Origin: a virus
Taxonomy: Duplodnaviria > Heunggongvirae > Uroviricota > Caudoviricetes
IMG/VR virus record: IMGVR_UViG_2917413769_000009
Coordinates: 1 to 44,211 of that record
Length of the DNA: 44,211 nucleotides
Strand: one strand, 5' to 3'
In this document: positions 12,813-38,967 of the stretch, one piece after another
How the letters are laid out: every line of letters begins with the position of its first letter
Position numbering within the stretch: the first letter of the stretch is position 1
Notes under the pieces: model-generated
Databases searched by the model: none
What the model was told of the DNA's origin: nothing
The model's input: the letters and a program-made list of their open reading frames with translations, nothing else
Program-made: the position numbers and the translations under genes

Positions 12813-15800
12813 TCAGGCACTGCATAATCCTCCGTCCCGACGTGATGACTGCATAATTGACACAACCCTGCTGTCGATCAGATCCACCAGCCCCCTGGCT
12901 GACTGCGTATCTATCTCGCCATTGCTCCCTTTATTCTGAATACTGATGTGATACACGGGAGAATAAACAAATCCCCCGCCACCATTCACATTGCCAATGG
13001 CTCTGACTCCAAGAGAGCCGTCCGCTGCCCGGGTCAGTGGCATGATAGCTTCAGGCCCGGCCTCGCCCATCAGCCCGGCACCTTTCGCAAAAGCAAAATA
13101 CGTCGGGGTATCCACAATGGTGTTACTGTAAGCACTCAAATTTGCCGATGTATAAACACCACCTTTTGCGTTTGCCACTGCACCGGAAAGCCAGTCGCCG
13201 ACTGTACCAAGCCATCCTCCGGCACCGGACATGCTTTTGGAAAGTGACTTCAGCCCGTTAACGATGGCAGCGTTCATCAGAATTTTTGAAACTTCCTGGA
13301 GAATTGAACTCCCCCAGTTTCGCCAGTCCACAACATTTCCGGCCAGTGCATCGGAAATATTTGATACCAGCCCGTCCATAGTGGAAACGACAGCATCTGC
13401 CGCCTGCGAAGCATAATCGGTGGCACTGTCTGCCCAGTTCGTCAGTCCCTCCTGGAGGCCGGCATTCCAGTCACTGCGTAAAGCATCAGCCTTTGCATAA
13501 TAATCCTGCTGATCGCTGAGACGCTCTTCCAGATATTTTTCATTCAGCGATTTTTCCTGTTTCCACAGGGCTTCTTCAATTTCTCCGGCCTGATACTGTC
13601 TCAGTAGCTCGTTATTTTTCTGCTCAAACGCCTGCCGGATACTCCACATTTCCTGGAGTCGTTCACGCATCCGTGAGCCTTCACCATATCCCAGCAACTG
13701 CGCGTCGTCAGATGCCCGGGCACTGGCATTACTGTCCGCCAGACTGCTTTCATACGCGGCAAGCTGCTCACGAATCTTTTTCTGGTCGATGAGTGCCGCA
13801 TTCTGTAAAAGCGTTTTTTTTCTGCGCTTCTGACAGGGTTGATAATTCGCCCTGACTGACCTGATATTTCATCTTAGCCAGTTCAGTATTCTGCCCTGCC
13901 AGTGCTATCTGTTCTTTTTGCTGTTTAATCAGCCGTTTATAAATATCTTCTGTTTTTTCCGCTTCGGTCTTTTTATGCGTTTTGGGTTTATTTGCCTGGT
14001 TATTTCGCCAGGCATCCAGTGAGTTATTGATATAATTCTGTCTGGCTGTCTGATACGCCTCTCCCACAAAGCCGAGATCATCCGCAGCATAGCCCAGTCG
14101 GGCACGCTCACGCGCTTCCCCCTTAAGGCGGGACAGAGCCAGTTCGCGCTTGCTGTTATTCAGTGCGGTCTGCTGTTTATCATCCAGGGTTGCCTGTGGT
14201 AGCCGTAACGGTACATTCACCAGCCCCTGTCGCTGCTGAAGTAATTCATTACCAAGCCCAAGAAGGCGATTAAACTCGGTATGCTGCCCATTCATGATCA
14301 ACAGGGACTGATACGCTTTGTTTTGTTCCGCCGCCTGTTGACGGATCAACGCCACCCGTCGCTCCTCCAGCCCGGCAAGCACATCCTGAATAGATTGCGC
14401 TTTGCCCTGCATTTGAGTGAGACGGGATTGTTCAACTGCCAGTTGATTTGTTGCTTCGGCAAGCCCTTTAAGGATGATTTCAGCACCCGAACCACTCTGC
14501 GAACTTTCATCAAGCCAACGTTGATAATCAGCAATTTGATTTTTCAGTCCGCGAATTTTTCCTTCCTGTTCGCTAATCAGGCGATTTTGTTCCTCCAGTG
14601 CCTGCCGCGTCTTTTCCTCATTATCTGACGCTTCAGGAAGCGACATTGCCGACGTTTTCTGGCGAATTTCGTCGATTGTTGCGGCATACTGACGTGCAGA
14701 TTCTCTGGCCTGCTCCTGATTCTGATACATCGTGTACCAGGCCGCAGCCCCCAGCATGACAAGCCCCGGCACACCACCAACCAGCCCCAGTGCCCCTCTT
14801 AACAGACGACTCCCCACTGACGTGACAGTATTCAGCGTTGTCTGTGCTGCTGTTCTGGCCGCAATATTACGGGTAAGTGACGCCTGAGCAGCTGTCAGCT
14901 TCGCTTCTGCGGCTGCCTGCCTTTCAGTACCACGGGTAGCCGCAACCGCCTGTTGCGCACGATAAACCGCCGCACGCGCCCTGGCTGTTGCTATCTGTGT
15001 CCCCCGAAGTTGCGCTTCCGCAAGAGCCACTTCGTTTCTGGCTGCAGTAATTAATCCGGCAGTTGCAGATCCAGCAGAAGACGCCATATTGCCAAAATAT
15101 CGGGCTACCCCGACGGCAACCAGAGCACCGGCAGCGGTTGCCACAGTGTCAATATTGCCTGCAATACCATTCAGCACACCGGAGAGCGTCTTCGTCACTC
15201 CGCTTGCCTCGTTCGCACCACCAACCCAGGCCATAAAGGCGTTTTCAACTTTGGTTGCAGAGGATGAAACCGTATCAGGCATTGCCGCATATTCATCACG
15301 TAATGCCCCAAGCTGACTAACCAGTGCAGGAACAACCTTATCGGCGGTCAACTTTCCGTTATCCGCCATGGCCTTCAGATCCTTACGGGCAACCCCCATT
15401 CCCGCAGCCAGCGCACGAATAACACGATCGCCGTTCTCATTCACCGAGTTAAACTCTTCACCGCGTAGCACTCCCTGCGCCAGTGCCTGACTGAACTGCG
15501 TGATCACCGAACTGGCTTCTGCTGTACTGGCACCGGATAATTTCAGGCCCGTGGAGATCGCCTCGGTGACTTTCAGTACCTCCTCAGAACTGTAACCATA
15601 CTCCCGCATGGAAGCTGCAGAACGTGCAAAAAGGCTGGCGTTATCAGAAAACGCCGTCCCCGTTCTCTGGCTGATCGCCATTAATTCACGCTGTGATGCC
15701 TGAAAATCATCACTGGACTGTGAGGCCTGCTTCAGACGGGCATTTACTGAATTCCACTCATCGGCGAGAGAAATAAGATGACCGGTAGCAAAAGCCCCGG

Positions 15801-16032
15801 CAAATGCCCCCGCCATATTCAGTGCCGAAGATTTAGCTGTATTTATTTGATCCGTCACTTCTGCCAGTGCACGCCGCATTTCACGGGATGCAGCAGCGGA
15901 CTGCCGGCCTCCGTTCTGCATGGTACGGTAGTAATCCTGCCCCATACGCGAAGCCCGGGAGATCTCTGACTGGAATGACCGGGAATTTGCCGAGATTTTA
16001 ATAATCAGTTCACGTAATGTCGCCACACTCAT
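12813..16032 (-). CDS. H: tail tape measure protein; reading frame interrupted at the A8 run (plus-strand T8 at 13814-13821)
   Basis: A 754-aa ORF (13768-16032) and a 294-aa ORF (12813-13697) are two frames of one gene. The C-terminal part (...AYSNTIVDTPTYFAFAKGAGLMGEAGPEAIMPL...) is lambda H C-terminus-like; removing one A from the run fuses the frames (...SEAQKKTLLQNAALID...). Confidence 0.85.
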
Positions 16033-16042
16033 TCTCCGGACG

Positions 16043-16064: not shown

Positions 16065-16072
16065 ATGTTGAC

Positions 16073-16384
16073 TCACTGAGACACTATTAAAAGCGCGTTT
16101 TCCAGTCCGGCAAATGGATCTGATACGCCTTCTGTCTGCTCCTTCTCCCACTGAAGAAGCGCATCATTCAGTGGCACTTTGACCCCCTGCGCACCGTAAA
16201 CAGCTGAAACAATCTGGGCAGCCCGGATATCAGCCCGTTCGTCCCCCAGCGGGCTGAACCTGTCAAATTCTGCCCACATCATGATTTCTGATGCGGACAT
16301 TTCCCGGCGTAACTCTGACAATGTGCGCCCCATCCTGAGCGCCAGCATCATCAGAAAACGCATCCCCGGAATCGCTACTTTTTT
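16073..16384 (-). CDS. T: tail assembly chaperone T extension, expressed only as a G-T fusion by -1 frameshift
   Basis: The -1 frame is open from just 3' of the slippery site to 16073 (...VAIPGMRFLMMLALRMGRTLSELRREM...), the classic lambda G/G-T arrangement. Confidence 0.75.
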   Translation of the reverse strand, partial: KKVAIPGMRFLMMLALRMGRTLSELRREMSASEIMMWAEFDRFSPLGDERADIRAAQIVSAVYGAQGVKVPLNDALLQWEKEQTEGVSDPFAGLENALLIVSQ

Positions 16385-16761
16385 TTAACCTCGCCGGCAT
16401 CACTGATCAGTTCCAGAGACTGCCGAAGAAGCCGCGCATGCACCGGGCCATACACGGCAATCACCTGTTCACGATCATCCTCTGAAAATACAGGTTGCAG
16501 TCCGGTATCACACAGAACATCGATGAACAGTTCAACATCCGCTTCCAGATTTCGGCGGGCGCGCTCCGCAACGGATAGCGGTGTCTCATCATCTTTTGCT
16601 TTAACGATCTCCTGCCAGCGCAACCAGGCTTCTGCAGAAGGTTCCCGTAATACAACCGTTGCCCCTTCCCATTCAGGCACATCAACAGTTTTATGGCGAA
16701 ACCCCGACATCGTTGCCAGTGCCAGATTACGGATATTTTTAGTCATCACATCTATCCTCAT
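16375..16761 (-). CDS. G: tail assembly chaperone G
   Basis: Position between the major tail and tape measure genes; ends ...AGEVKKK-stop within the slippery A-run. An alternative ATG start at 16746 is possible. Confidence 0.85.
   Translation of the reverse strand: MRIDVMTKNIRNLALATMSGFRHKTVDVPEWEGATVVLREPSAEAWLRWQEIVKAKDDETPLSVAERARRNLEADVELFIDVLCDTGLQPVFSEDDREQVIAVYGPVHARLLRQSLELISDAGEVKKK
16378..16384 (-). promoter_or_regulatory. programmed -1 ribosomal frameshift slippery heptamer A AAA AAG
   Basis: On the minus-strand mRNA positions 16384 to 16378 read A-AAA-AAG, with the G stop 2 codons later and the T frame open. Confidence 0.7.
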
Positions 16762-17465
16762 TAACTGACGGTTACAGTGCAGGAAGTGGAGGTCACTTTG
16801 TTAACCGGGCTTGCTGAATCAGAAATCTCGCAGGTATATGCGCCCGCATCACCGGATACTGCCGATGCCTTACTGAACGTTGCCGCCGTCTGTCCGGAAA
16901 CAGGAGAACTACCTTTCTTCCAGACATAAGAATAAGGCGGCACACCACCGGCAGCCTCAACCATCATTTCGAGTTTCGCTCCGGCAGAAACCTGCAGCGT
17001 GCTGTTTAAATCGACCTTCACTTTCAGTGGCTCTGTCGTCAGCACAGGTTTACCTTTCAGGCGCAGGGAAAACGTTGCAGCCACAACACCGTTGGTTCCT
17101 GCAGACCAGGTATGCTGACGCACCTCTGCCATAAAGGTAAATCCGTTTCCTGACGGAAAAATAACTTTAAAGCCATACGTGGTATCATTGTCATAGGCAC
17201 TGCGCAACGCGTTCTGGGCAGCATTGAGGTAAAAGTTGCCTGACATGGAAATCTCTGACGCGGCACCAAGACCGTTAATATTTTCCTGCTCAACAGAACA
17301 CAGCGTGGTGACATCAATATCCTGCTTTTGTCCTGCGGTAAACTGCACCTCTTTGATTGTACAGCTCAGGCCAAGATAGCTGGCAGAATCCAGGGTTTCT
17401 GCTGTTACCGGTGCAGACGAAATCATAATTTTCGTCAGTTGCGAACGCTCAAAATTAGAGGACAT
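16761..17465 (-). CDS. V: major tail protein with C-terminal Ig-like domain
   Basis: Start at MSSNFERSQ... (ATG 17463-17465, SD AGGAG). C-terminal 90 aa (...LEMMVEAAGGVPPYSYVWKKGSSPVSGQTAATF...AGAYTCEISD...) looks like a Big_2-type Ig domain, as in lambda V. Confidence 0.85.
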   Translation of the reverse strand: MSSNFERSQLTKIMISSAPVTAETLDSASYLGLSCTIKEVQFTAGQKQDIDVTTLCSVEQENINGLGAASEISMSGNFYLNAAQNALRSAYDNDTTYGFKVIFPSGNGFTFMAEVRQHTWSAGTNGVVAATFSLRLKGKPVLTTEPLKVKVDLNSTLQVSAGAKLEMMVEAAGGVPPYSYVWKKGSSPVSGQTAATFSKASAVSGDAGAYTCEISDSASPVNKVTSTSCTVTVS

Positions 17466-17480
17466 ACTCGTCTCCTGAAA

Positions 17481-17503
17481 ATAAAAAACCCGCCAGCGGC
17501 GGG
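17481..17503 (-). terminator. hairpin plus U-tract immediately upstream of the major tail gene
   Basis: Minus-strand CCCGCCGCUGGCGGG followed by UUUUUUAUUUU (plus-strand 17481-17503). Confidence 0.4.
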
Positions 17504-17524
17504 TGGGTAAAATCATTAACAACC

Positions 17525-17869
17525 TCAGGCTATTACCTGAAATTCAAGCGTGGCTCTGCTCAGACGGGAATCAGGATCATAACCCTGAGTTTTAGAAATA
17601 ACGGAGGGTACAAGTTGCCTTACCGCATCAAGCGCCTGTTCCCGAATATCATCTGCGTCATCAGGTACTGTCGCCCAGACATCGATCTGCACGACAATTC
17701 TGGATTCAGCCTGACCATCAAGCACATCAGACGCCGTGTCAGACACCACTGAAAACACCAGCCACGGTGGAGATACCGCAGGCTTTCCCTCCGTCAGCGG
17801 GACCACATAAGGATAAACCTGCCCTCCGGCCAGTTGGGACAAAAGAGCATACAGCGTGGCTTCTCTCAT
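17525..17869 (-). CDS. tail completion / tail terminator protein (U-like position)
   Basis: 114-aa ORF between the head-tail joining genes and the major tail gene; assignment by synteny. Confidence 0.7.
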   Translation of the reverse strand: MREATLYALLSQLAGGQVYPYVVPLTEGKPAVSPPWLVFSVVSDTASDVLDGQAESRIVVQIDVWATVPDDADDIREQALDAVRQLVPSVISKTQGYDPDSRLSRATLEFQVIA

Positions 17870-18336
17870 TTACTCAGCACCCCATCAATAGCCTGATTCA
17901 TATGCTTCATGGCAACCTGCGCTGCCAGCTCCTCTGTCGTATCGAAAGCCGGGCGAATGAATGGATGCGCGGGCATGTTTATCGTTCCCAGCTCCACGAA
18001 ACGCCAGTAAAACGCATTTCGGGGATCGCTGGCTTTCATGCTGTTATCACTGTTTCCGGTTCGCAGGTTCCGTCCACGAATGTGGACACCCGAGATAATT
18101 TCCCCCCGACGCTTTGAACGCTGAGTGAGAACAACCACATTTTTCTTCAGTTTCCCGGTTCGCTCCGGCGCACGTTCAACAACTGCATCCCGCATAACCT
18201 CTGCACCGGCACGGGAGGCATCGCGAAGCACCTTATTACTCTCTGCTCTGCTGAGAAGTTCCAGATCTCTTGCAATATCCGCCAGGCCAGAAAAATCCAG
18301 ACTAAAATCCGTCACATTCCACCTCTCTGGCTGCAA
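17866..18336 (-). CDS. tail component, HK97 gp10-like
   Basis: 156-aa ORF, ATGA-coupled to the downstream gene; assignment by synteny. Confidence 0.7.
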   Translation of the reverse strand: MQPERWNVTDFSLDFSGLADIARDLELLSRAESNKVLRDASRAGAEVMRDAVVERAPERTGKLKKNVVVLTQRSKRRGEIISGVHIRGRNLRTGNSDNSMKASDPRNAFYWRFVELGTINMPAHPFIRPAFDTTEELAAQVAMKHMNQAIDGVLSK

Positions 18337-18650
18337 AGTATTTCAAGCCTGGAGGATCGTGCGTCTGGGATCGGCGGCCCGTCGATATTCAGAATGGCTC
18401 CCTTGAATGCCCCTGTCAGCACTTTCAGACGTGAGGCGGCCGTCACATCGCGCCGGAATCGCATCCAGACTCTTACTGTTGTCTGCGCTGTTTCCGCACC
18501 GCCCGATATACGTTCCCGCCCACTGATCCCCTTAACCTCTGCCCATACCGTAGCCCCCTCTTTCAGGGTTTCCTCCAGGTGACCAGAAGGGGTACGGGAG
18601 GTCGTAATATTCAGAATAACCACGCGATCACGTAATCTTCCTGCCTGCAT
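18312..18650 (-). CDS. head closure / head-tail adaptor protein
   Basis: 112-aa ORF in the HK97 gp7-like position. Confidence 0.7.
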   Translation of the reverse strand: MQAGRLRDRVVILNITTSRTPSGHLEETLKEGATVWAEVKGISGRERISGGAETAQTTVRVWMRFRRDVTAASRLKVLTGAFKGAILNIDGPPIPDARSSRLEILCSQRGGM

Positions 18651-18659
18651 GAAATCCTC

Positions 18660-18965
18660 CTATGTTCCGGGATGAAACCGATACATTCGGAGTCCGGTAT
18701 AGAAAAAATCAGGCACAGCATCCTGCATTTCCCTGTTCTCGTACCAGTAGCCAACCAGTTGCATAAGACGCAGCTTTATCAGCGGTGTTATTACAAGCCC
18801 GGTCGTATCCTGATCAGGAACAGTTTCATCGTGAAGTGTCCGGTTTAAAAACTTTTCAGCCTCTTCTCTGGCTGCTGCCAGATACATCATAAGAAGTGCA
18901 TTCTCCTGTTCATTGTCATCATCAATCCGGCACTGAACACGAAGCTCTTCCAGAGTAGGCATCAT
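18660..18965 (-). CDS. head-tail connector protein (gp6-like)
   Basis: 101-aa ORF directly after the capsid gene region; MMPTLEELRVQCRIDDDNEQENALLMMYLAAAREEAEKFL... is typical of gp6-like connector proteins. Confidence 0.75.
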   Translation of the reverse strand: MMPTLEELRVQCRIDDDNEQENALLMMYLAAAREEAEKFLNRTLHDETVPDQDTTGLVITPLIKLRLMQLVGYWYENREMQDAVPDFFYTGLRMYRFHPGT

Positions 18966-18976
18966 TTGGGCTACCT

Positions 18977-19165
18977 CTATGAATGCTGTTTTTTAGCCTT
19001 ATCAGATACCCGTGCAACAGGTGTTCTCTTATCAGAAACAATCCCTGCTGCAGTGGCAATTTCACGTACCCGTTCGGGTAATTCTTTATCTTCATACTCA
19101 CCAGAACGAATGATCTCAACGCGCATACCGTCCGGTGACCATTTCAGATCTTGTTTCAGGATCAT
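18977..19165 (-). CDS. small hypothetical protein (62 aa)
   Basis: ORF MILKQDLKWSPDGMRVEIIRSGEYEDKELPERVREIATAAG... with SD AGGTGA; lies between the major capsid and connector genes. Confidence 0.35.
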   Translation of the reverse strand: MILKQDLKWSPDGMRVEIIRSGEYEDKELPERVREIATAAGIVSDKRTPVARVSDKAKKQHS

Positions 19166-19214
19166 GATTCTTTCACCTGTCAGAACAGGGGCGCAATTCA
19201 GCGCCCCTGAGTGA

Positions 19215-20420
19215 TTACGCCGCTGCAATCTTCAGCAGTTTGATGGCCTGCGAATCGACCAGCATGCCGCCGGTGCGCTTGGTGGTATAAAAACCGACAA
19301 ACGGTTTATTGGTGTACGGATCACGCAGAATGCGGGTACCGATACGGTCAACGATGGTGTAACCCCGCTTGAAGTTACCAAATGCAATAGCTTTCGCATC
19401 AGCGGCGATATCCGGCATCTGTTCGTTTTCAGCGATACCGTAACCCGCCAGAGAGGACGGTTGCCCCAGCTCCAGCCCCGGACGCCACAGATAGTTACCC
19501 TCGGTGTCTTTCAGCAGACGGATGGCAAACAGGCTGTTGTTGTTCATCATGAACTTCGCGCCAGTGCGGTGTGCCTTACGCAGCGTGTAAATCAGTTTGA
19601 TAATGGCGTCTGCGGTCACCGTCGTCGCTTCACCGGATACAATATGCTGAAGTTTACCGAACGCACGAACCTTATCGGTTTCATCGGTGGATTCATACGC
19701 CAGGAACCCTTTTGGCTTCTTGGTGCCATCACCGGTGGTAAAGGCAATTTCTTCCTGTTCGGCAAATTCGGTCGCCAGCTCGCTGTTGATCCAGGCCTCC
19801 ACGTTGAAGAAGGCATCATCCAGCATTTTCTGAGTGGCCTGCGGGTTACCGTAGATTTCCCCCATGAAAGGTTCAATCAGTCCCAGTTTTGAGGTGGCAG
19901 TCTGGGAGCGCGCGTCAGTCTCGCCAACCCATCCGGAAGCCGTGCCGCCCAGATTCACCAGTTTTTTGTAGTCGGAACCGCCAACGGTGATCACCGTGGC
20001 TTCCTGGCGCATCACCACTTCATCTTTCAGCAGGGTGAGAATGTTGCGATCCAGTGCTTCCGGCACGGCATAGCCGCCGTCTTCATCGGTGCCCACCTGT
20101 AATGCCTTGCGCTCCAGATCGCGCAGACCATCTTCACGGCCTTTACGCAGGAAGCCCACAAACGCTTCTTTATGCTCGGTGGCCAGTTTATTTTGCGCAC
20201 CACCTGCCGGACGTTTCAGCTCAAGCAGCTCTTTTTCAAGATCGCTTTTGAGGTTTTCCAGCTCGCTGAGTTTCCCGTTCAGGGTTTCCACCTGCCCGGC
20301 AAGTTTGCCTTTTTCCTGCTCAATCGCATCCACGCGCTTGTCGTTCTTTGCTTTGAAGTCGTCAAACTTCTGCTGCAGCTCCTGCGCGACCTGTTCCACA
20401 TCTTTAATATCAACCGCCAT
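19215..20420 (-). CDS. major capsid protein, HK97 fold, with N-terminal delta (scaffold) domain
   Basis: 401 aa; N-terminal coiled coil (...ELQQKFDDFKAKNDKRVDAIEQEKGKLAG...) followed by a capsid domain; follows the protease gene as in HK97. Confidence 0.95.
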   Translation of the reverse strand: MAVDIKDVEQVAQELQQKFDDFKAKNDKRVDAIEQEKGKLAGQVETLNGKLSELENLKSDLEKELLELKRPAGGAQNKLATEHKEAFVGFLRKGREDGLRDLERKALQVGTDEDGGYAVPEALDRNILTLLKDEVVMRQEATVITVGGSDYKKLVNLGGTASGWVGETDARSQTATSKLGLIEPFMGEIYGNPQATQKMLDDAFFNVEAWINSELATEFAEQEEIAFTTGDGTKKPKGFLAYESTDETDKVRAFGKLQHIVSGEATTVTADAIIKLIYTLRKAHRTGAKFMMNNNSLFAIRLLKDTEGNYLWRPGLELGQPSSLAGYGIAENEQMPDIAADAKAIAFGNFKRGYTIVDRIGTRILRDPYTNKPFVGFYTTKRTGGMLVDSQAIKLLKIAAA

Positions 20421-20434
20421 CGTATTTCTCCTGA

Positions 20435-21121
20435 TTAGAAGTTCAGATTTTTCAGTGCATTCAGTGCAGAGCCCACATCCTCAGCGTCGCGCAGGGACAG
20501 TGCGCCATAGCCCCCGGCCATGAATGCTTTGGCCTGGGTACGGGAGAGTCCGACATCACGCAGGACTCTTTCGATTTTTTTCTGTTCGGGGATTTCACCG
20601 CGGGCCAGCGCGTTCTTGACGTCGCTGATCCGCGCCTCGTCGTTAGACGGGAACGTCACCAGACTGACTTCCCAGAGGTCGATTTCTTTCAGCAGAAAGG
20701 CTTCTTTACTCCGGTCGTATTCCCAGTCTTTCAGGACGTACCCAATAGAAAGGCCGGTTAACGAACCGGCCTTCATGTGTGCATGTGCGCGTTTTGCGAG
20801 GGGATCATCATCAATGAGCAACCGTCCCCTGACGTAAAGCCCGACATCGTCTTCCTTCATTTCGGTATAAACACCGATGGGTTCATCCATGCGGTGCTGC
20901 CAGAGCAGCGCAGGTAACGCTTTTCTGTCACTCCACGCCCGCAGGGAAGCAGCAAATGCCCCGGACATCACCACATCATCGTGGCTGTCCTTTACACCAA
21001 AGACGGAGCCATACCCTTCAAACTCACCGGAGTCACTGACAGATTTCAGACTCAGCGGTACATCAAGACGTTGTTTCGTCTGCATTGGCGTTATCCTTCT
21101 GCTTACCGGCTTTACTGCCAT
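20435..21121 (-). CDS. prohead maturation protease (HK97 family)
   Basis: 228-aa ORF between portal and capsid genes. Start uncertain (overlaps the portal 3' end). Confidence 0.9.
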   Translation of the reverse strand: MAVKPVSRRITPMQTKQRLDVPLSLKSVSDSGEFEGYGSVFGVKDSHDDVVMSGAFAASLRAWSDRKALPALLWQHRMDEPIGVYTEMKEDDVGLYVRGRLLIDDDPLAKRAHAHMKAGSLTGLSIGYVLKDWEYDRSKEAFLLKEIDLWEVSLVTFPSNDEARISDVKNALARGEIPEQKKIERVLRDVGLSRTQAKAFMAGGYGALSLRDAEDVGSALNALKNLNF

Positions 21122-22304
21122 CGGAGGGTTTCGTGGTCATGTTCATCGGTGTGAGATAGACATCACCACCGGGACGCGGATTCATATCTTCCAGGTCGCG
21201 GCAGTCATTGGGAGAGTAAATTCCCCAGTTGATCCCGGTGGCGTAGGCTTCAAAACGGGACTTCATATCCCCGCGCAGTAACGCCCCGGCGTTAAATTTG
21301 GCGTAATAAATGCCCTGCTTACTTTTTCGTACCAGTCCGGTGTTGATCCGCTGCTCAATGCGGGTCAGATACGGCACCAGTGAATAGTTGATAAATCCCA
21401 GCCCCAGCTCTTCGATATTGTTGAAGGTGGCGCGATCGGTGTTCTGCACCATATGCAATGGCACCCGGAACAGACGACAGATTTCTTCAAGCTGAAACTT
21501 GCGGGTTTCCAGGAACTGGCTGTCCTCGGCGTTCAATGCCATCGACTTCCAGTCCAGCCCCATCTCAAGGATCATCGGGCGGTGAGCATTGCCAAGCCCG
21601 GTGTGACGCTCCTCAAAATCTTTCTTCAGGCGCTCATAAGCCTGATCCGACAGCGTCTGTTCTGTACGCAACACACCGGACGTCACCGCGCCATTGCTGA
21701 ACAGTCTGGCACCGTGTTCTTCAGTCGCTGCTGCCAGCGATATTGCCTCGCGGGCATAGGCGATGGGATTCAGTCCCACCAGACCGTCCAGCGTCAGCGT
21801 GCGCACATGCCAGATATCCTCCTGGGTCAGCACATCCGTTGAGCCGTCCGGGAATGTGACCTGATAGACCGGCTCCCAGCTACTGTTAAGCTTCGGTACC
21901 ACACAGCCGGGATCGACGGGCAGCAGTTCAGCCACTTCGCCAAATGCTTTCACTTTGTAGGCGTAAAAGTTGCCCCGCAGGCACAGACAGGTGACCACCA
22001 GCTCCCAGAACTCCTGCGGCGTCATATAGCCATTAGGATGCGAGGAGATCAGCTTATGCAGACGTTCGCCAGTGGCTCTCTGCTTCAGACCGCCATTCAG
22101 GTGATACAGGTTGCAGGGCAACATCCCGACCGACTCCGCCAGCACCCTGACGCAGGAAAAAACCGCCGTCAGTCGCATGGCCCGCTGACTGCTGATCTGC
22201 TTTCCGGTATAGGTGTCGTAGGACAACCCGATAGCATCCGCCAGCTCTGCTGGCGTGGTCACCGGTGCGTCACTTTTTCGTTGAAATAATCCCGAAAAGA
22301 ACAC
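21063..22304 (-). CDS. portal protein (HK97 family)
   Basis: 413-aa ORF downstream of the terminase, with an acidic/basic C-terminal tail. Confidence 0.93.
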   Translation of the reverse strand: MFFSGLFQRKSDAPVTTPAELADAIGLSYDTYTGKQISSQRAMRLTAVFSCVRVLAESVGMLPCNLYHLNGGLKQRATGERLHKLISSHPNGYMTPQEFWELVVTCLCLRGNFYAYKVKAFGEVAELLPVDPGCVVPKLNSSWEPVYQVTFPDGSTDVLTQEDIWHVRTLTLDGLVGLNPIAYAREAISLAAATEEHGARLFSNGAVTSGVLRTEQTLSDQAYERLKKDFEERHTGLGNAHRPMILEMGLDWKSMALNAEDSQFLETRKFQLEEICRLFRVPLHMVQNTDRATFNNIEELGLGFINYSLVPYLTRIEQRINTGLVRKSKQGIYYAKFNAGALLRGDMKSRFEAYATGINWGIYSPNDCRDLEDMNPRPGGDVYLTPMNMTTKPSDGSKAGKQKDNANADETTS

Positions 22305-22486
22305 TATTTACCTCCGCCGACAGACTGCTGTGTACGGTCGAGATATCGCGCCACCAGCCACGACCAGAACAGGCACAACGCCCCGGCAACAACAAAACCC
22401 ACCGGGGGATAAATCAGCCAGGCACCATACGCCAGCAAAAGCGCCCCCAGCACGCCTACCAGAGGCGCGAGAATCAGCATGATCAT
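22304..22486 (-). CDS. small hydrophobic protein (60 aa) between terminase and portal
   Basis: [52 protein letters not shown]..., two predicted TM helices, start/stop coupled to neighbours. Could be spurious. Confidence 0.3.
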
Positions 22487-22497
22487 AATTACCTCAG

Positions 22498-24230
22498 TTA
22501 AAGCGAGCGGATCCCGTAGGACTCAATGTGGTCAGACAGCGTGTCTTCTTTCTCGTACAGCATGGCTCTGCCAACCGCCATAATCAGCGCAACTGCACCA
22601 TCGATTTTGTTTTCCGCCTGCTCTTTGACGGGCTTCACCACATCATCGTTACCCGGAATGGTTTTTCCGACCACGTTGCCGATACACCAGGTCATGATGG
22701 GATTGCCATCATGATGAAAGCGCCCCGATTCAATTGCCGCTTCCAGCTCTTTCATCGGGTCGGACATGTTGGTGTAGTTCTGAATGATGGTGACGGGGTT
22801 CAGGTCTTCATCAGCAAGGTCATGTGACAGCCCGGTCGCCCGAAGGGGTCGATGGGTGACTCGCTGACCGGGCTGATTTTGTTCGCCGCTTTGGCCTCTT
22901 CGAGGATGTAGCGATAATCCACCTCTGCACCATCGGTAACGGTCAGAACGCCCATTTCCACCCATTTCTGAAAGCGTTCGGCTGTCCGGCGATCTTCATT
23001 TTTCTCGACGCTATACACCGTGTCATACGGTACCCAGAAACGCGGGGCCACACTGTAGTAATGCGTTTTACCGTCAATCTCGCGGGTATAAAGTCGCGCC
23101 ATGCTGTTCATATCCAGCTTACGCGCCAGGTCAAAGGCCAGAATGCACGGCTGCCCCTCGAATTGCTCAAGAGTCAGTGATTTATCCTCGCAGCTCTGCC
23201 AGCTCACCAGGTTGAAATACGCCGAACGCGCCGACACCCAGATATTGAGGTGTTTTGTTTTAAAGACGTTTGCCAGACGGGCGTTATTTTTCGCACGCTG
23301 TTGCTGACTTAACAAAAACTCACGGTAAACCGACACCCCGATATTCGGGTTGGCTTTTTCCAGCACCTGTGGGTCGGTCCAGTCGTCACCTTCGTCAACG
23401 GTATAGATGATCCCGAACAGTTCATCGTTGGGTACCGAACCGTTGAGCATCTCGATAACTTCCCGCCGTTTGTCGTAGCACGGCCCCTCAATGTTGTACC
23501 CGGCGGTAGTGATAGCCCACATCAGTGGCTGACGTCGCGCCCCCATCCCGGTAATCATCGTGGTGTAAAGCGCATCTGTGGCGTGCTCGTGATATTCATC
23601 CACCACCGCACAGTGGGGTGATGAACCATCACCGGGGTTACCGATCAGCGGTTCAAACCGCGCCCCATCCTCCGGACGGTTCATGTTTGAGGCGTTAACC
23701 TCAATCCCGAACGCTTCCGTCAGCATTGGTGTGCGTTTACACATCAGTCGCGCCGGGCGAAAAACTTCCCACGCCTGTTTCTCTGTCGTGGCACCGGAAT
23801 ACACTTCCGCGCCAAACTCGTTATCACAGGCAAAACAATACAGGGCAACACCGGCAGAGATTGCCGATTTGCCGTTTTTACGGGGAATTTCGGTATACAC
23901 CTCCCGGAAGCGGCGCAACCGGGTGCCTTTATTGACCCAGCCAAACGCACAGCAGATCACAAATAGCTGCCACGGCTCCAGCGTGATGGGCATCCGTTTA
24001 AATGCCCACTCACCCTTGGTGTGCGGCAACAGCTGAATAAATTTGGCGGCCCGTTCAGCCAGGTCCTTGTCGAAGCGGTAACGAAACGACTTACTTTTTT
24101 CCGCCATCAGGTCATCAAGATGGCGCTGGCAGGCCTGAATCACAAACTGGCAGGCAACAATCTTTCCGCGCACGACATCCCGGGCATACTGATTTGCAGC
24201 ATTTACGTTGGGGTAAGATTTCCGGCTCAT
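22498..24230 (-). CDS. terminase large subunit; reading frame interrupted near the G4 run at 22845-22848
   Basis: N-terminal ATPase part is the 476-aa ORF 22800-24230, the C-terminal nuclease part continues in another frame to 22498 (...[22 protein letters not shown]...). Adding one G/C at the run gives a continuous ...[14 protein letters not shown]... Confidence 0.85.
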
Positions 24231-24730
24231 GATTCGATAATTTTCAGAAACGGGTTAGTGGCTTTCTTCTGCCCCGCCAGGCCAATCAGACGCTGGCGGC
24301 TGCTGGGGTCGAGTCCGAGCATTGCCCCCGTACTGCTCATCTCGGACTCCTGTTCTTTTTTGGCGGTCAGCTCCGGATTTTTGACCATGCCGCCCATTGC
24401 ACCGGTGATGGTGTTGCCCTGTCTGGCAATATTTTTCACAGCACGTCGCCAGAACTCATAGGCTACGCACCACCGCTCAAGCACCGCAAGGTCAGTCACG
24501 CACAGCAGGCCCTGACCGCAGAGTTCTTTGGTTGTCAGTTGCCACATGATCGTGGCGAGAGGGAGCTCTTCTTCAGCGAACCACTCCGGTGGCTCAACAC
24601 CTTTGATGGGCGTAAAAACGGGTTCATCTTTGTTCAGGGCTCGCTTGCCGGGGTTTCCGGCCAGCGCCTTGCGCGCCGTTGGCTTGGGGCGACGCCCGGA
24701 ACGCCCCGCCGTTCCAGCCATATGCGGCAC
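24227..24730 (-). CDS. terminase small subunit (P27-like family)
   Basis: 167-aa ORF ATGA-coupled to the large subunit; basic N-terminus [30 protein letters not shown]... Confidence 0.85.
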
Positions 24731-24764
24731 TCCTGGTTAAATTTCATTTTTCGCGGGTATAAAA

Positions 24765-24825
24765 AAACGATGGGGCGGGCAGTCCGGAAGACGTCAGGTC
24801 ACAGGGATTTGACCCGCCCCTCCCC
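24765..24825. other. GC-rich inverted repeat in the HNH-terS intergenic region; candidate cos/packaging signal or terminator
   Basis: GGGGCGGG (24772-24779) and CCCGCCCC (24813-24820) flank a 33-bp spacer; the minus-strand transcript would have a U-run after the hairpin. HK97-type phages place cos upstream of terS. Confidence 0.3.
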
Positions 24826-24846
24826 TCAGACAGTTGAGAATTATTA

Positions 24847-25197
24847 TCAATTAAGCCGTTCACGGGCCGTCTTCGCCTTATGACACGGCCAGCACAGGCT
24901 CTGCAGATTACTGTCTGAATCTGTGCCGCCATGCGCTTTAGGGATGATGTGGTCAACGGTTTTCGCCTCGCGCACCACACCAGCACGCAGGCACAACTGG
25001 CACAGGCCTTTGTCACGCTTCAGCACACGCGCGCGGATACCGTCCCACTTCGAACCATAACCGCGCTGATGACGGGATTGTCCTGGCTTGTATTGCTTCC
25101 AGCCTTCGCTTTTGTGGCTTTCGCAATAGCCGGAAGGAGCAGTGGTGGTATGGCGGCAGCCGCGAACACGGCAGGCTCTGGGGATTAAGGCAGGCAT
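24847..25197 (-). CDS. HNH endonuclease
   Basis: 116 aa with Cys-rich N-terminus and HNH motif ...VDHIIPKAHGGTDSDSNLQSLCWPCHKAKT...; HNH next to terminase is typical of HK97-like packaging modules. Confidence 0.88.
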   Translation of the reverse strand: MPALIPRACRVRGCRHTTTAPSGYCESHKSEGWKQYKPGQSRHQRGYGSKWDGIRARVLKRDKGLCQLCLRAGVVREAKTVDHIIPKAHGGTDSDSNLQSLCWPCHKAKTARERLN

Positions 25198-25470
25198 GAT
25201 AAATCGACTCGTTTAACTCTTCTGTGTCTACAACGCAAATCACAAACTCCGCATTCTTCCCTCCATTAAAACTGAATATTGAAGAGGGATTATGAAAAAA
25301 GATCATTTAATCAATCTGATAATCAATATCTTACTTAAGATGATAATAAAGCTTTGCGCAAATTGGATATTGGAACACTTCCACATATGGTTGAACCATC
25401 TGCTGTCTTACATGAGCTGACACTGTTCATCCGCACACGAGTGGTGTGGTAGGCATATTGATTCGAGCGT

Positions 25471-25917
25471 TTATGAATGCAGCCCGGGTATTGTGAGCTG
25501 CAGCTGGGTAGCCAGGCTACTAATTTCGGCCATCAGAACTGGCTTGGTGTAACGCCATGCAGCCAGGCCCTGCCCGCAGAAGCTCGCCATATCTTTCTTC
25601 TGATCAAACTCGTGACACTTCATATTGAGCTGTGCACTTAAGCTGCTGCGATGCTGAAGCTCTCCGGTGAAGTAGTCATCGAGGACTTTATAGGCTGCAT
25701 ATTTAAACCCAGGGTTTAGCCATGCCGCGTAATCATAAGCAACAAACTTTCCTCCATATGTTCCACCGTGTACACCGCGCTCCGTAAAAACCACAGATTC
25801 GTGGTTTTTCTCCAGCTCGGCTAAGAACTCTTTGGTCTGCTTGTTTCGCAGGTAGTGGTACGGAGATTCAGATTCACTTTTACCACTGGCTTTCCACATG
25901 TCAGTGAGGCAGATCAT
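25471..25917 (-). CDS. KilA-N domain protein
   Basis: 148 aa; ICLTDMWKASGK...YLRNKQTKEFLAEL...ERGVHGGTYGGKFVAYDYAAWLNPGFKYAAYKVL fits the KilA-N pattern (INATQMCKAAGK...WLRLKSTKEF...GTWVHPDLAIEFARWLSPEF) as I recall it. Confidence 0.6.
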   Translation of the reverse strand: MICLTDMWKASGKSESESPYHYLRNKQTKEFLAELEKNHESVVFTERGVHGGTYGGKFVAYDYAAWLNPGFKYAAYKVLDDYFTGELQHRSSLSAQLNMKCHEFDQKKDMASFCGQGLAAWRYTKPVLMAEISSLATQLQLTIPGLHS

Positions 25918-26143
25918 TCCTGATTCATCAACACGGATCGAATATTAAAAAGCGTGATTGCTTTCATAGCGTTTTTACCTTTTAGAAAATTGAGCCTGTC
26001 CCACAGAAAAGCCGCCCCGAGATGGTCGCCACCATATACGGCAGTTCTCAGGCTCAACTTTCTGAAAGGCTCGGGTGATAATATGCGCGTGGGAGGCGCG
26101 GTGAATTTCAGATGTCAAAAAGCCAGCGATTAATCTGGCTCTG

Positions 26144-26581
26144 TTAATTCAAACACTGCGTTCTGATGTACTCCTGCAAGTAGTTAACCTGCGCGGTTAT
26201 CCTGTCGATTCCACTTCGGAGACGGTAATAATTGAGTTCAGCATCTGCTGTAAGTCTTGGGCTTTCTCCATCGCCCATGCCGCTGGCTCCGGTCGTTGAC
26301 TTTGCACAGGTGGCGGCGACTTGCAGGCGCTTACGACCAGCAGAAACATCAGCACGGAGACTTTCGATAGTCGCGTTAGCATCAGCAAGCTCCTTTGTGT
26401 ATCTGGCGTCGAGTTCTGCTACATCACGTTGACGCTTCTGCATGTCAGCGATGATGTACGTGGCTTTATCGCGCTGGTCTTTGTAGGCGATGGCGTTATC
26501 ACGGTAATGATTAACAGCCCATGACAGGCAGACGATGATGCAGATAACCAGAACAGAGATAATCGCGGTTACCCTGCTCAT
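26144..26581 (-). CDS. Rz: i-spanin Rz
   Basis: Start at [31 protein letters not shown]..., matching the lambda Rz N-terminus as recalled; coupled to the endolysin stop. Confidence 0.85.
26197..26388 (-). CDS. Rz1: o-spanin Rz1 (lipoprotein) embedded in the +1 frame of Rz
   Basis: 63-aa ORF inside Rz with lipobox LVVSAC and a proline-rich segment. Confidence 0.8.
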
Positions 26582-27075
26582 TGTTGCCCCCACAAACAGA
26601 CCTCACGCTCAATCTCACGACGAGTCATCAGGCCTTTCCATTGCTTACCGCCAGCGTATGTCCAGCGACGTAGCTGGTCACATGCGCCCTTGATATCGCC
26701 CTGGTTTATTTTGCGAAGAAGAGTAGATGTTCTGAAATTGCCTGCGCCCACGTTATAGACGAACGAGTAAAGAGCGCCGCGCGTTGTTTCCGGTATATCG
26801 ACTTTGATGTACGGGTTAATTTGTCTGGCGACAGTGGCAAGGTCTTTATTCAGGAGGGCTTTGCATTCTGCTTCGGTATACGTTTTACCGAGCATAATGT
26901 CTTTTCCGGTGTGCCCGTAACATACAGTCCATACACCAACGATATCTTTATATGGTATGTAGCTGACGCCTTCCAGACCATCGTTACCACTTGGGCCAGT
27001 GATTAACACAGATGCTATAGCAATAGCCCCGCCACCAATAGCCGCAGCAACGGCTTTTCGTAATGATGGAGGCAT
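26578..27075 (-). CDS. R: SAR endolysin (phage-21 R21-type lysozyme)
   Basis: 165 aa; N-terminal Gly/Ala-rich weakly hydrophobic signal-anchor-release segment [20 protein letters not shown] followed by a lysozyme-like domain. Confidence 0.9.
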
Positions 27076-27290
27076 TATTCACCTCTCGCAGCCTTTCTTC
27101 TGTCTTCTCTGATTTTGAAGTACAGATTTGTCAGATAGGTGAGAAAGCCCAACACAAGGCTTCCAAGCACTCCAATCGCAGCCCACTGTGATGGACTGAC
27201 CTGATCCAACCACTGCAAAAACCAGTATCCCGCACTACCAGCGGATGTTCCGTAGGCAATGCCAGTTGAGATTTTGTCCATTGATTTCAT
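27075..27290 (-). CDS. S: pinholin (phage-21 S21-type) with dual-start motif
   Basis: 71 aa, [71 protein letters not shown], which I recognise as the S21 holin/antiholin sequence. Confidence 0.9.
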
Positions 27291-27560
27291 AGCAACGCCT
27301 CCGCAAGTAACGGATTGCGTAGTTCTTATATTGGGAAGGGAGGAAAGAAGGCCGCAGCGTAACTATCACTGATGAGTTCAGGATAGCCAGTGGCTACGGC
27401 TCAGTTTGGGTTGTGCTGTTACTGGGCGGCGATGACGCCTGTACGCATTTGGTGATCCGGTTCTGCTTCCGGCATTCGCTTAATTCAGCACAACGGAAAG
27501 AGCACTCAATGCATTTAAACCAAGCCCCATAAAGGAGAATGCTCTTACCTGTTGCACAGA

Positions 27561-27622
27561 TATAAAAAATCCCGAAACCGTTATGCAGGCTCTAACTATT
27601 ACCTGCGAACTGTTTCGGGATT
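27561..27622 (-). terminator. tR' late terminator
   Basis: Minus-strand hairpin AAUCCCGAAACAG...ACGGUUUCGGGAUUUUUUAU, near-identical to lambda tR' as recalled. Confidence 0.75.
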
Positions 27623-27756
27623 GCATTTTGCAGACCTCTCAGCCTGCGATGGTTGGAGTTCCAGACGATACGTCGAAGTGACCAACTAGGCGGAATCGGT
27701 AGTAAGCGCCGCCTCTTTTTATCTCACTACCACAACGAGCGAATTAACCCATCGTT
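27563..27756 (-). ncRNA. 6S RNA (short PR' transcript including qut), about 194 nt
   Basis: Distance from the predicted PR' start to tR' is about 194 nt and the sequence is lambda-like (ACGAUGGGUUAAUUCGCUCGUUGUGGUAGUGAGAU...). Confidence 0.55.
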
Positions 27757-27762
27757 GGGTCA

Positions 27763-27791
27763 AATTTACCCAACTTTATTCAAAAAGTCAA
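27763..27791 (-). promoter_or_regulatory. late promoter PR' (-35 TTGACT, -10 TAAATT, 17-bp spacer) with adjacent qut
   Basis: Minus-strand TTGACTTTTTGAATAAAGTTGGGTAAATT downstream of Q, closely resembling lambda PR'. Confidence 0.75.
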
Positions 27792-27833
27792 TATCATGCC
27801 GTTAATATGTTGCTATCCGTGGCAATCATGCTG

Positions 27834-28457
27834 CTAACGTGTGACCGCATTCAAAATGTTGTCTGCGATTGACTCTTCTTTGTGGCATTGCACCACCAGA
27901 GCGTCATACAGCGGCTTAACAGTGCGTGACCAGGTGGGTTGAGTAAGGTTTGGGATTAGCATCGTTACAGCGCGATATGCGGCGCTTGCTGGCATTCTTG
28001 AATAGCCGACACCTTTGCATCTTCCGCACTCTTTCTCAACAACTCTCCCCCACTGCTCTGTTTTGGCTATATCAACCGCACGGCCTGTACCGTGGCAATC
28101 TCTGCATCTTGCGCCCGGCGTCGCGGCACTACGGCAATAATCCGCATAAGCGAATGTTGCGAGCACTTGCAGTACCTTTGCCTTAGTATTTCCTTCAAGC
28201 TTTGCCACACCACGGTATTTCCCCGATACCTTGTGTGCAAATTGCATCAGATAGTTGATAGCCTTTTGTTTGTCGTTCTGGCTGAGTTCATGCTTACCGC
28301 AGAATGCAGCCATTCCGAATCCGGCTTGTGATTGCGCCATCCCCATAGCAGCCATCACATCAGTACCGGAAAGAGAGTCAGAAGCCGTAGCCCGTGGTGA
28401 GTCGCTCATCATCGGGCTTTTTGGCGAATGAAATTTAGCTACGCTTTCGAGTCTCAT
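27834..28457 (-). CDS. Q: late antiterminator Q (lambda type)
   Basis: 207 aa, [60 protein letters not shown]..., essentially lambda Q as recalled. Confidence 0.95.
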
Positions 28458-29119
28458 GCGCCTTCTCCCTGTACCTGAATCAATGTGAGATTTCCGCAGA
28501 ACACTGCCCCAGTATCGATATACATCTGGTTGGCAAATTTGAGTGGTTTCACTGCTGGCGTATGACCAAAGATAAACGTGTCCGCGCCTTTAATTTCTTT
28601 CACGATCCCGTCTTGTGAGTTGCTGATTCGTTCGCGGTTCCAGATTACCTGCTGATGATCAACTGGCTTTCCGAACTCGTATTCATCACAAGGATAATCG
28701 GCGTGGCAGATGACATATTTTTTATCTTTGCTCACCAGTTCGATGATTAACGGAAGTTCTTCTGCTTTATGGGCAAGAGCTTTAGCCAGAATTTCTTTGT
28801 CGTAATCGAGATTAAAGAACCAGCCACCGCCATTAAGCAGCCAGTGATTGACGTTTCCACGCTCTGATAAGCCATCAATCATCATGTGCTCATGGTTTCC
28901 ACGTACAGCTCTGAACCAGGGGAATGTGATTAATTCCAGGCATTCAACGTTCTCTGCACCACGATCAACCAAATCGCCAACCGAGATAAGCAGGTCTTTT
29001 TTGGTGTCGAATCCAATCGTATCCAGTTTGTTCATCAGGTTCGTGTAGCATCCGTGCAGGTCGCCAGCTACCCAAATATTTCGGTATTTGCTGCCATCAA
29101 TTCTTTCGTAGATATTCAT
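28454..29119 (-). CDS. ninI: NinI serine/threonine protein phosphatase
   Basis: 221 aa with metallophosphatase motifs GDLHG, GDLVDRG, GNHE. Confidence 0.92.
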
Positions 29120-29727
29120 GCTGCCTCACTTCTGCTGTTTCGCAGATTTTTAAGTTTCTGCTGATACTCCGCCTTGATGGCCCTGCACTCTTCGACAGTC
29201 CAGCGATGGCGGTTATGGTTTGATTCGATTTCGTCTACTGCTTCCTGCCCGATGCGATTAATCAGTTCGACGCGATACGGAACGAGATTTCCGCTTTTGT
29301 GCTGGTTGCACACCACGCATTGCTTGTGAATATTGCGTTCATCAAATCGGAGTTGAGGTGCCGCAGCAGTTGTCCGGTAATGTCCGGCATCCCACTGAGC
29401 AGACGTGAGCGTTCCGCACGAGATACATGGTAAGTCGCGGTCTCTTTCTCTGATGAAGGCGTTTACGGCTTGTTGGGCTTGTTTAATCCAGTAACTGCGG
29501 GGCTTTAAGGCGAGTTTTCGAATCTTAAGTTTATCTTTCTGTTTCTGCTCCTCTCGTCGTCGTTTCTTCTCTGCTGCTTTTTCCGCTTTTTCGCGTTCTT
29601 TGCTTCGTCGTTCGAGTGCTATCTTTGTTCCACACTCTGGAGAGCACCACCACTGATTAGCGAATGCAGGGTGAAACCATTTCCGACATTCATCGTTTTT
29701 ACATCGTCTTCGCGCTGGTTTAGCCAT
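29116..29727 (-). CDS. ninG: NinG (Rap recombination endonuclease)
   Basis: 203 aa with Cys clusters and basic coiled stretch; [33 protein letters not shown]... as in lambda NinG. Confidence 0.9.
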
Positions 29728-29896
29728 CGTCTTCTTCCTCGTACATTGAGCTATTCGGATCGCTCATCAGTTCTGCGCAGCAGTGCTCACACACGTGAAC
29801 TTCAAGCACATGCAGCTTCTGACCGCAGTTAGCGCACGTTAAAGCCCGCTCGACGCTTTCTTTCTGGTATTGAAGGGATTGGGATGGGCTAAGCAT
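29720..29896 (-). CDS. ninF: NinF
   Basis: Hand translation [58 protein letters not shown] (58 aa), lambda NinF-like; overlaps the ninG start. Confidence 0.8.
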
Positions 29897-30261
29897 TATT
29901 GGATTCTCTGCATCATGAGAAAGACAATCATGGCGGCGCGGAGGGGATTTTCATGTATAGCTCGCTTAGATTTACAGTAGGCCACACCGCGTGCACCCCA
30001 CTCGTCTTCATCGAGATTGATAATGCTAATCCTGTATTTTTCAATAATCGGCCATGCGTCTGCTGGGTTTACGCATGGGTTAAATGATCCGCGCTCAACT
30101 TCTACTTCAACTGCGTCTCCGTTTACAATGTCTCCCTCAAATGAGACAAACACCATATCGCCATTCTCACCTTCTTTGTAATCCGGTGATCCGTTATGAA
30201 TGGATTCGAATACCGCCACGTTAATTTCAAAATCACTTAACTGTGAATAATCCATTGTCAT
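29896..30261 (-). CDS. hypothetical nin-region protein (121 aa) inserted between ninE and ninF
   Basis: ORF ATGA-coupled on both sides (start overlaps ninE stop, stop overlaps ninF start); acidic, no recognised motif. Confidence 0.6.
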
Positions 30262-30434
30262 TTCCTCGCGCGTTCTCTAAGCCACCGGATATCCCACAGG
30301 TGAGCCGTGTAATTGAAGGTTTTTACGTCAGATTCTTTTGGGATTGGCTTGCGTTTATTTCTGGAGCGTTTCGTTGGAAGGTATTTGCAGTTTTCGCAGA
30401 TTATGTCGGTGATACTTCGTCGCTGTCTCGCCAC
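30258..30434 (-). CDS. ninE: NinE (GTG start)
   Basis: Hand translation (M)[66 protein letters not shown] 4 nt upstream of GTG 30432-30434; lambda NinE-like. Confidence 0.6.
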
Positions 30435-31880: not shown

Positions 31881-31896
31881 GACTTCCCTCTCCCCC

Positions 31897-35864: not shown

Positions 35865-36443
35865 TTGAGTATACCAACTGTCTCTCTATGGAATGAGATG
35901 GGGTTAATCCCCCCAATAGACGAGGCTGATCCTACAAGCCATACTCGTTCCCCATACAAAATGGATATAGTACGCTTTGTTAGTACTTTTTCGCTTAGCC
36001 CTGCAAGGATTAAAATCCTTAAGGGTTTTCTTAATTTTCGTGTTTCACTCACTCAAGCAGGGCTGGTTGAAGGTTTTCAGTGGGTAGATGGAAGCTTCAC
36101 AGAACATATTGAACTTATTGAAAAAAGGCCACCGAATGATGTCGATGTTGTGACCTTTTTTCAATTCAGTAATGGCGATAATGATGCAATCGTAATCGGT
36201 AGAAAGCCAGAGCTATTTGATCATGATTTTGTTAAGAAGGAGTTTTTCGTAGATTCCTACTTCCAAGAACTTAATCTACCAAGTCATGAGCTTGTTGAAA
36301 TGACTGTATATTGGTACAGTATGTGGGCACATAGACGCGATCTGTCGTGGAAGGGATTTATCCAAATCCCGTTAAACCCACAACTTGATGTTGTGGCAAT
36401 GACTATACTTAATTCGGCTGCTACTGAGGGGGTCAAACAATGA
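35865..36443 (+). CDS. hypothetical protein A of the cI-linked two-gene cassette (rexA position); possible nucleotidyltransferase-like fold
   Basis: 192-aa ORF from a TTG start (AAGG 7 nt upstream), or 181 aa from the ATG at 35898. Not hydrophobic; motif GFQWVDGSF-x14-DVDVV. Confidence 0.7.
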   Translation: MSIPTVSLWNEMGLIPPIDEADPTSHTRSPYKMDIVRFVSTFSLSPARIKILKGFLNFRVSLTQAGLVEGFQWVDGSFTEHIELIEKRPPNDVDVVTFFQFSNGDNDAIVIGRKPELFDHDFVKKEFFVDSYFQELNLPSHELVEMTVYWYSMWAHRRDLSWKGFIQIPLNPQLDVVAMTILNSAATEGVKQ

Positions 36444-37309
36444 ATCGTAATGATTATGTTTTCGCTCTCAGTGAGCGCGAGCAAATAAGTAATCTATTAA
36501 AAAATATGCCAACAAGTCATTCTATTAGCCGAAAAAGCTTAGAAGACCGTCTGGAGAAAGTTGAGCGATTAATTTCACAAGCTGACGTTCGAGAACATGA
36601 ACCTACGCATGCTGTGTTAACTTTTAGAGGCCCAACAGTAGTTGGCACGCATGGCATTTCAGCAGTATTTGGAACAAAAGCTATATCTTGTTTTAATGAT
36701 GCAATAGCTTACTTGGCAACCTCTTTCAATGGCCCACTTCCTGCATCAGGCAAGATACCAAACATAGAAAATAATCATCTCATGATTACCGCGTCAGCCC
36801 GTGGTTCTTTCGGATTCGTACTTGAAGAGTTTAGACCTGATGCTCCTCTTGAATTCGATGAAGAAACCCCAGTAGCAAAAGCTATTAATAAGGCCAGAAA
36901 AATATTTCAGGCAAGCTTGGATAATGATGATGAAGAATTGTCTGATGCTATAGAAAACTTAGACTCTCGGGCCTTAGATAAAATCAGAGCGTTCATTCAT
37001 TATCTGCATGAAAATAAAACAGTTTTTACACTTAAAAGCCAAGGTTTTAGCATCGTTTTTAGAGAGCCAAAACAGCTTGAAGCTGTATATCAACATCTCA
37101 GCAATGATAATATTCAGCAGGAAAAAATTATTGAGAACGTTATATTTTTGGGAACTCTTCCTAACAAGCGCCAATGTGAATTTATAGTTTTAGGTAACAC
37201 TGATATCAGAACCGCTAGCATTGACAAAGCTGTAGATGACCCAGATATTATAAACAAGCACTTAGGAAGCGTTGCAACAGCCACGTTCCTGAAAAAAAAC
37301 TGTTGGTAA
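36440..37309 (+). CDS. hypothetical protein B of the cI-linked two-gene cassette (rexB position)
   Basis: 289-aa ORF, ATG overlaps the stop of gene A (ATGA), SD GAGGGGG; AT-rich; no TM segments; the only motif noted is R-x6-H (RAFIHYLH) in a helical stretch. Confidence 0.7.
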   Translation: MNRNDYVFALSEREQISNLLKNMPTSHSISRKSLEDRLEKVERLISQADVREHEPTHAVLTFRGPTVVGTHGISAVFGTKAISCFNDAIAYLATSFNGPLPASGKIPNIENNHLMITASARGSFGFVLEEFRPDAPLEFDEETPVAKAINKARKIFQASLDNDDEELSDAIENLDSRALDKIRAFIHYLHENKTVFTLKSQGFSIVFREPKQLEAVYQHLSNDNIQQEKIIENVIFLGTLPNKRQCEFIVLGNTDIRTASIDKAVDDPDIINKHLGSVATATFLKKNCW

Positions 37310-38589: not shown

Positions 38590-38967
38590 ATGAATAGATG
38601 TCAAACATCAAAAAAATACATCATTGATTACGACTGGAAAGCATCAATAGAAATTGAAATCGACCATGACGTAATGACAGAGGAAAAACTTCACCAGATT
38701 AATAATTTCTGGTCAGACTCTGAATACCGACTCAATAAACACGGCGCTGTATTAAATGCTGTATTAATCATGCTGGCGCAACATGCTCTGCTTATAGCAA
38801 TTTCGAAAGACTTAAATGCATATGGTGTTGTTTGTGAGTTCGACTGGGATGATGGAAATGGTCAGGAAGGATGGCCTCCAATGGATGGTAGTGAAGGAAT
38901 AAGAATTACCGATATCGATACATCAGGAATATTTGATTCAGATGATATGACTATCAAAGCCGCCTGA
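38590..38967 (+). CDS. Ea10-like early protein; probable true start at the ATG at 38598, disrupted by an extra A in the A7 run
   Basis: The long ORF starts at an ATG with SD spacing of only 1 nt. The ATG at 38598 has good SD spacing but reads MSNIKKIHH-stop; with A6 instead of A7 (38610-38616) it would read MSNIKKYIIDYDWK... into the long ORF. Confidence 0.5.
   Translation: MNRCQTSKKYIIDYDWKASIEIEIDHDVMTEEKLHQINNFWSDSEYRLNKHGAVLNAVLIMLAQHALLIAISKDLNAYGVVCEFDWDDGNGQEGWPPMDGSEGIRITDIDTSGIFDSDDMTIKAA

Follow-up and report, generated by a model that had tools for sequence, protein, structure and literature searches.

In the viral DNA analysed here, a stretch of 44,211 nucleotides (hereafter, the window), the gene for the large subunit of the terminase (terL) is split by a frameshift, which is very probably (roughly 93%, in our estimate) a sequencing artefact, namely an Ion Torrent consensus base-calling error. 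A coding-strand run of four G would have been shortened to three in the consensus of the draft genome of strain E1130, and the real gene would most likely be a single 1734-nt open reading frame (ORF) encoding a normal 577-aa large terminase of the HK97/P27 type, with the packaging genes of the prophage most likely being intact. The comparison of assemblies suggests that the fault lies in the reads and that the DNA itself is correct. This reading is supported by differences confined to homopolymer length, the absence of substitutions, the recurrence of the differences by project instead of by lineage, and the documented Ion Torrent origin of the genome. The terL split is, hence, not a biological feature, and the terminase is an ordinary member of a known family.

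On the minus strand of the window, terL is present as two overlapping ORFs in different frames, at 22800..24230 (476 aa) and 22498..22965 (155 aa), with an overlap of 166 nt, confirming the split that had been reported in a sequence-only reading of this DNA. The gene as a whole (minus strand, 24230..22498) is 1733 nt in length, compared with 1734 nt (577 aa) in all intact homologues, and the shift represents a 1-nt deletion, equivalent to a -1 change of frame. The 1733-nt query (22498-24230) had matches in 1426 records of complete E. coli genomes and in 21 records of phages, and every time the query was fully covered, the match was 1734 nt in length and annotated as a single 'terminase large subunit' gene. 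An alignment with five intact relatives (the E. coli ECONIH1 prophage, SfII, SfIV, vB_EcoM-720R4, and ST64B), the type of comparison with intact terminases that the sequence-only reading had proposed for placing the indel, located the gap in the coding-strand G run at 22839..22841 (minus strand; CCC on the plus strand), which corresponds to positions 81211-81213 of PDIL01000009.1 and is GGG in the window and GGGG in the relatives. At this site, the closest relatives (ECONIH1 and 720R4) read CCCTTCGGGGCGACC, and the window reads CCCTTCGGGCGACC. The CCCC run at 22845-22848, which had been named as the most likely site of the indel, was found to be unchanged in the closest relatives, the actual site being 4-7 nt downstream of it. 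The restoration of one G resulted in a 1734-nt ORF, the 577-aa product of which is identical to TerL of a sister strain, and the repaired junction peptide is ...SPIDPFGATGLSHD..., which replaces the 14-letter peptide proposed earlier.

The break follows residue 464 (of 577) and falls within the nuclease domain. The 476-aa ORF (22800..24230, minus strand), which is the 5' reading frame of terL, contains residues 1-464 of true TerL, comprising the ATPase domain and the first ~60% of the nuclease domain, and its last 12 residues are out-of-frame read-through. The 3' segment at 22498..22838 (minus strand), in the frame of the 155-aa ORF, encodes residues 465-577 of the intact protein with the remaining nuclease domain, and the first ~42 codons of the 155-aa ORF (22498..22965) are spurious. 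In the Pfam analysis, TerL_ATPase (PF03354) was present at residues 86-256 with an E value of 5.5e-26 and a score of 91.8 bits (cut-off, 23.7), and, of the 286 positions of TerL_nuclease (PF20441), 4-170 were matched by the longer ORF and 183-284 by the shorter. A complete nuclease domain in one polypeptide is absent from the gene as deposited and is obtained once one G is restored. The earlier description of the two ORFs as an ATPase part and a nuclease part was, therefore, right as to the presence of two ORFs but not as to a boundary between the domains, as it is the nuclease itself that is split.

The extra base was present, with the gene uninterrupted, in 114 of the 117 loci fetched for the terL site, and the three loci without it came from the source contig (two stretches) and from a Logan contig (SRR6148301). 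The allele with three G (G3) was found in 0 of 697 complete E. coli records matching the site, and exact-pattern scans did not find it in GTDB representatives, in JGI metagenomes, or in IMG/VR, where the intact 39-mer was present in 107 contigs. The accession number SRR6148301 would fit the SRA batch of the E1130 project. Along with G3 in terL, this Logan contig had a further unique deletion (CCC to CC; 1 of 109 loci) at the window-equivalent positions 23516-23518 and no substitutions over 5.5 kb.

The window could be traced to its source assembly, as positions 1781-43330 were 100.000% identical, in three overlapping stretches and with the terL deletion included, to PDIL01000009.1 (GCA_004745435.1), in which the position is given by the window position + 58372. 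Four contigs, including PDIL01000009.1, encode a portal protein that exactly matches that of the window. PDIL00000000 is the genome of Escherichia cryptic clade II strain E1130, which was sequenced by Ion Torrent with single-end reads of 35-400 bp at 50x, assembled by MIRA and SPAdes, and annotated by PGAP, and all 16 genomes of the project of E1130 were obtained with this platform, read type, pair of assemblers, and annotation pipeline (PMC6639607). The errors of Ion Torrent are mostly homopolymer indels, with 'high frequency indel' errors at ~1 per kb of reference, and, according to Bragg et al., the usual bias of raw reads is towards too many bases in short runs and too few in long runs (PMC3623719). 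Neither terL nor the tape measure gene has a protein on record in GCA_004745435.1, which fits the treatment of these genes as pseudogenes by PGAP. Exact look-ups of both truncated terL products resulted in no match, which is also consistent with a PGAP pseudogene but is uninformative alone.

To compare the window with a close counterpart, we used GCA_005781065.1 (VATL01000010.1 and VATL01000009.1), in which the prophage of the window is found at the identical locus, between thrS and yniD; this sister may be a related strain or the same strain re-sequenced. A search with the protein encoded at 43488..43859 matched neither the contig of the source nor that of the sister. Over 16,644 + 16,420 nt (~33 kb), the window and this sister differed by 0 substitutions and exactly six one-base changes in homopolymer length, two of which (terL G run and tape measure A run) are in the stretch 9961-26604 and four of which, all in A/T runs, are in the stretch 26915-43334, with 0 substitutions in each of the stretches. 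The five differences besides that in terL are all in A/T runs of 6-8, and the runs that differ represent 5 of the 13 runs of at least 7 nt and 1 of the 1200 three-base runs. In the sister, neither of the two genes is broken, TerL being 577 aa and the tape measure protein 1070 aa in length. The tape measure run at 13814..13821 (minus strand) is A8 in the window and A7 in the sister and four other relatives, and the gene (minus strand, 12813..16032) is split in the window into ORFs of 754 aa and 294 aa, compared with the single 1070-aa ORF. In the early region, the run at 37292..37299 (plus strand) is A8 in the window and A7 in the sister, because of which the product of the ORF at 36440..37309 is 289 aa instead of 309 aa. 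The run at the 5' end of the DUF2528 gene (38610..38616, plus strand) is A7 in the window and A6 in the sister and four unrelated assemblies, and the product is 125 aa in the window and 122 aa in the sister. At every run that they span, the outgroups agree with the sister, by 5 to 1 at the tape measure run and also by 5 to 1 at the 38610 run. The last two differences concern the Invasin_D4-like gene. The run between its RBS and ATG (42090..42096, plus strand) is T7 in the window and PDII and T6 in VATL and RHJI, and another run at the gene (42144..42151, plus strand) is A8 in four assemblies of the Ion Torrent project, compared with A7 in six assemblies of other projects, and A8 removes 19 N-terminal residues (214 aa vs 233 aa). 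Separately, the C run at ~24817, between terS and the HNH gene, has one C more than that in the E. coli AVS0655 prophage; the sister agrees with the window at this run, indicating ordinary non-coding divergence and no miscall.

The foremost alternative is that the deletion is real, having occurred very recently by strand slippage in E1130 and leaving a defective prophage in the first stage of decay. TerL would then lack the C-terminal 113 residues of the nuclease domain, making the prophage incapable of cutting and packaging DNA. We consider this improbable. Homopolymer runs are natural hotspots of replication slippage, and the fact that PGAP called no protein for either split gene of E1130 (terL and tape measure) indicates that the lesion is in the deposited sequence, but six homopolymer indels accompanied by no substitution in 33 kb are unlike spontaneous mutation. 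In mutation-accumulation experiments in E. coli, substitutions outnumber indels in repair-proficient and mismatch-repair-deficient lines alike. Furthermore, a second strain of the E1130 project showed this excess confined to homopolymers. Between PDIH01 and RHJN01, which carries a near-identical prophage and is from another project, there were 0 substitutions and eight one-base homopolymer indels over 20,161 nt; these indels run in both directions, and one of them is GG to G in a short run. Three assemblies from other projects showed no indels among themselves over 22 kb. The run at 42144-42151 was altered alike, to A8, in all four of the project assemblies (PDIH, PDII, PDIJ, and PDIL), whereas A7 was read in each of the six assemblies produced by other projects, a pattern that implicates the platform rather than biology. 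The occurrence of G3 in the Logan contig SRR6148301 as well as in the NCBI assembly would be in line with a real deletion, but the extra unique CCC to CC deletion of the Logan contig looks like more noise.

A variant of this alternative is that G3 is real and common by descent to E1130 and the isolate of SRR6148301, with the homopolymer tracts of late genes (terL and the tape measure gene) serving as mutational switches. If so, virion production could be quickly disabled in the clade II lineage, and the window would be an unusually clean snapshot of early prophage domestication; this is, in our view, more improbable still. Prophage decay was rejected as the main reading. Typical lesions of decayed prophages are deletions, rearrangements, insertion elements, and substitutions, and the window has no substitutions, deletions, or insertion elements compared with the sister and is complete in gene order. 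The terminase pseudogenes of decayed prophages, such as ymfN in e14 of E. coli K-12 (similar to ST64B terL according to the record of that phage), are likewise terL homologues without a single intact ORF, but, unlike them, the window is collinear with intact relatives and shows 0 substitutions vs the sister. Thus, of the two explanations that the sequence-only reading had offered, a cryptic prophage was not borne out, and an indel error was strongly supported by the Ion Torrent source and the homopolymer-only differences. Lastly, programmed recoding, by which a -1 ribosomal frameshift or transcriptional slippage would join the frames to make a full-length terminase, is effectively excluded, as the one point in its favour is the 166-nt ORF overlap, within which a -1 shift would join both ORFs, but this zone has no in-frame X_XXY_YYZ heptamer anywhere and no runs longer than A4 and C4, a shift elsewhere than at the G run would change the conserved PFGATG peptide, and the two-frame layout is not conserved, every relative, otherwise identical copies included, having one uninterrupted ORF.

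With regard to the base-calling error, the window and its source showed run-length changes of +/-1, a flow-based platform, and an excess of indels over substitutions across the project. The pattern has in common with the homopolymer errors of flow-based sequencing (Ion Torrent PGM and also 454) that runs change by +/-1, that long runs are hit far more, and that the errors recur within a project; unlike the typical bias of raw flow errors, the long runs of the window are mostly over-called. Two points run counter to the artefact. Most of the differences (G4 to G3 and A/T7 to 8) are opposite to the bias described by Bragg et al., although consensus errors of MIRA and SPAdes need not follow the bias of raw reads, and the comparison of PDIH with RHJN shows both directions. 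In addition, the G3 call was reproduced from at least one read set (SRR6148301), which may consist of the E1130 reads themselves, of those of a different strain within its Ion Torrent project, or of those of an independent isolate.

An implication of the artefact is that apparent pseudogenes in the drafts of this project should be re-sequenced before they are interpreted as gene loss or as decay of a prophage. This caution covers terL, the tape measure gene, the Invasin_D4-like gene, and, in all probability, a transporter gene of one sister strain. The project drafts have ~1 homopolymer-length error per 2.5-5.5 kb in the regions compared. As the 16 genomes are among the principal public resources on Escherichia cryptic clade II, pseudogene counts and calls of prophage intactness would be inflated for the lineage. 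As for the transporter gene, a one-base insertion (T to TT) was observed at position 3623 of PDID01000048.1, from the same project, and removes the gene call of a conserved 463-aa sodium:dicarboxylate-symporter-family gene adjoining cedA; this insertion may be a real indel, as the contig is 1.3-1.6% diverged from the assemblies compared.

The prophage is of a lambdoid siphovirus with a head module of the HK97 type and is inserted between thrS and yniD. The genes for head and packaging are in the order of HNH endonuclease, terS (P27 family), terL, ymfR, portal, prohead protease, and major capsid, and the position of terL in this module matches that in annotated relatives. The group of SfV, SfII, SfIV, ST64B, and phiP27 has the same gene order and the same Pfam domains, and terL of the window is set apart from this group only by the missing G, its nucleotide identity being 95-98% to E. 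coli prophage and Shigella phage genes, 81% to ST64B, and 75% to phiP27. Unlike in that group, the tail module of the window is lambda-like (J, Lom, tape measure, and G/T chaperones). The prophage is also collinear, from the tail fibre to the early genes, with the intact E. coli AVS0655 prophage at ~96% identity. At the left end of the window (1-2505), thrS shares 95.9% identity with its nearest counterpart among 5426 complete E. coli genomes; the differences are nearly all synonymous, and third codon positions account for 74 of the 79. This divergence indicates that the host is of a diverged Escherichia lineage and that thrS itself is not noisy in substitutions. In the identical locus of the sister, an integrase (402 aa) is encoded just past the position of the right end of the window. 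The accessory genes are those of an Ail/Lom-family outer membrane protein (6278-6877), a PAPS-reductase-like protein in the nin region (30571-31503), a homologue of DNA polymerase III theta (41665-41823), and the Invasin_D4-like protein (42155-42799). The genes for tail assembly chaperones of the lambda G/T type, Phage_TAC_1 and then Phage_tail_T, are at 16073-16761 on the minus strand, and lambda-like G/T chaperone genes are joined by a genuine programmed -1 frameshift.
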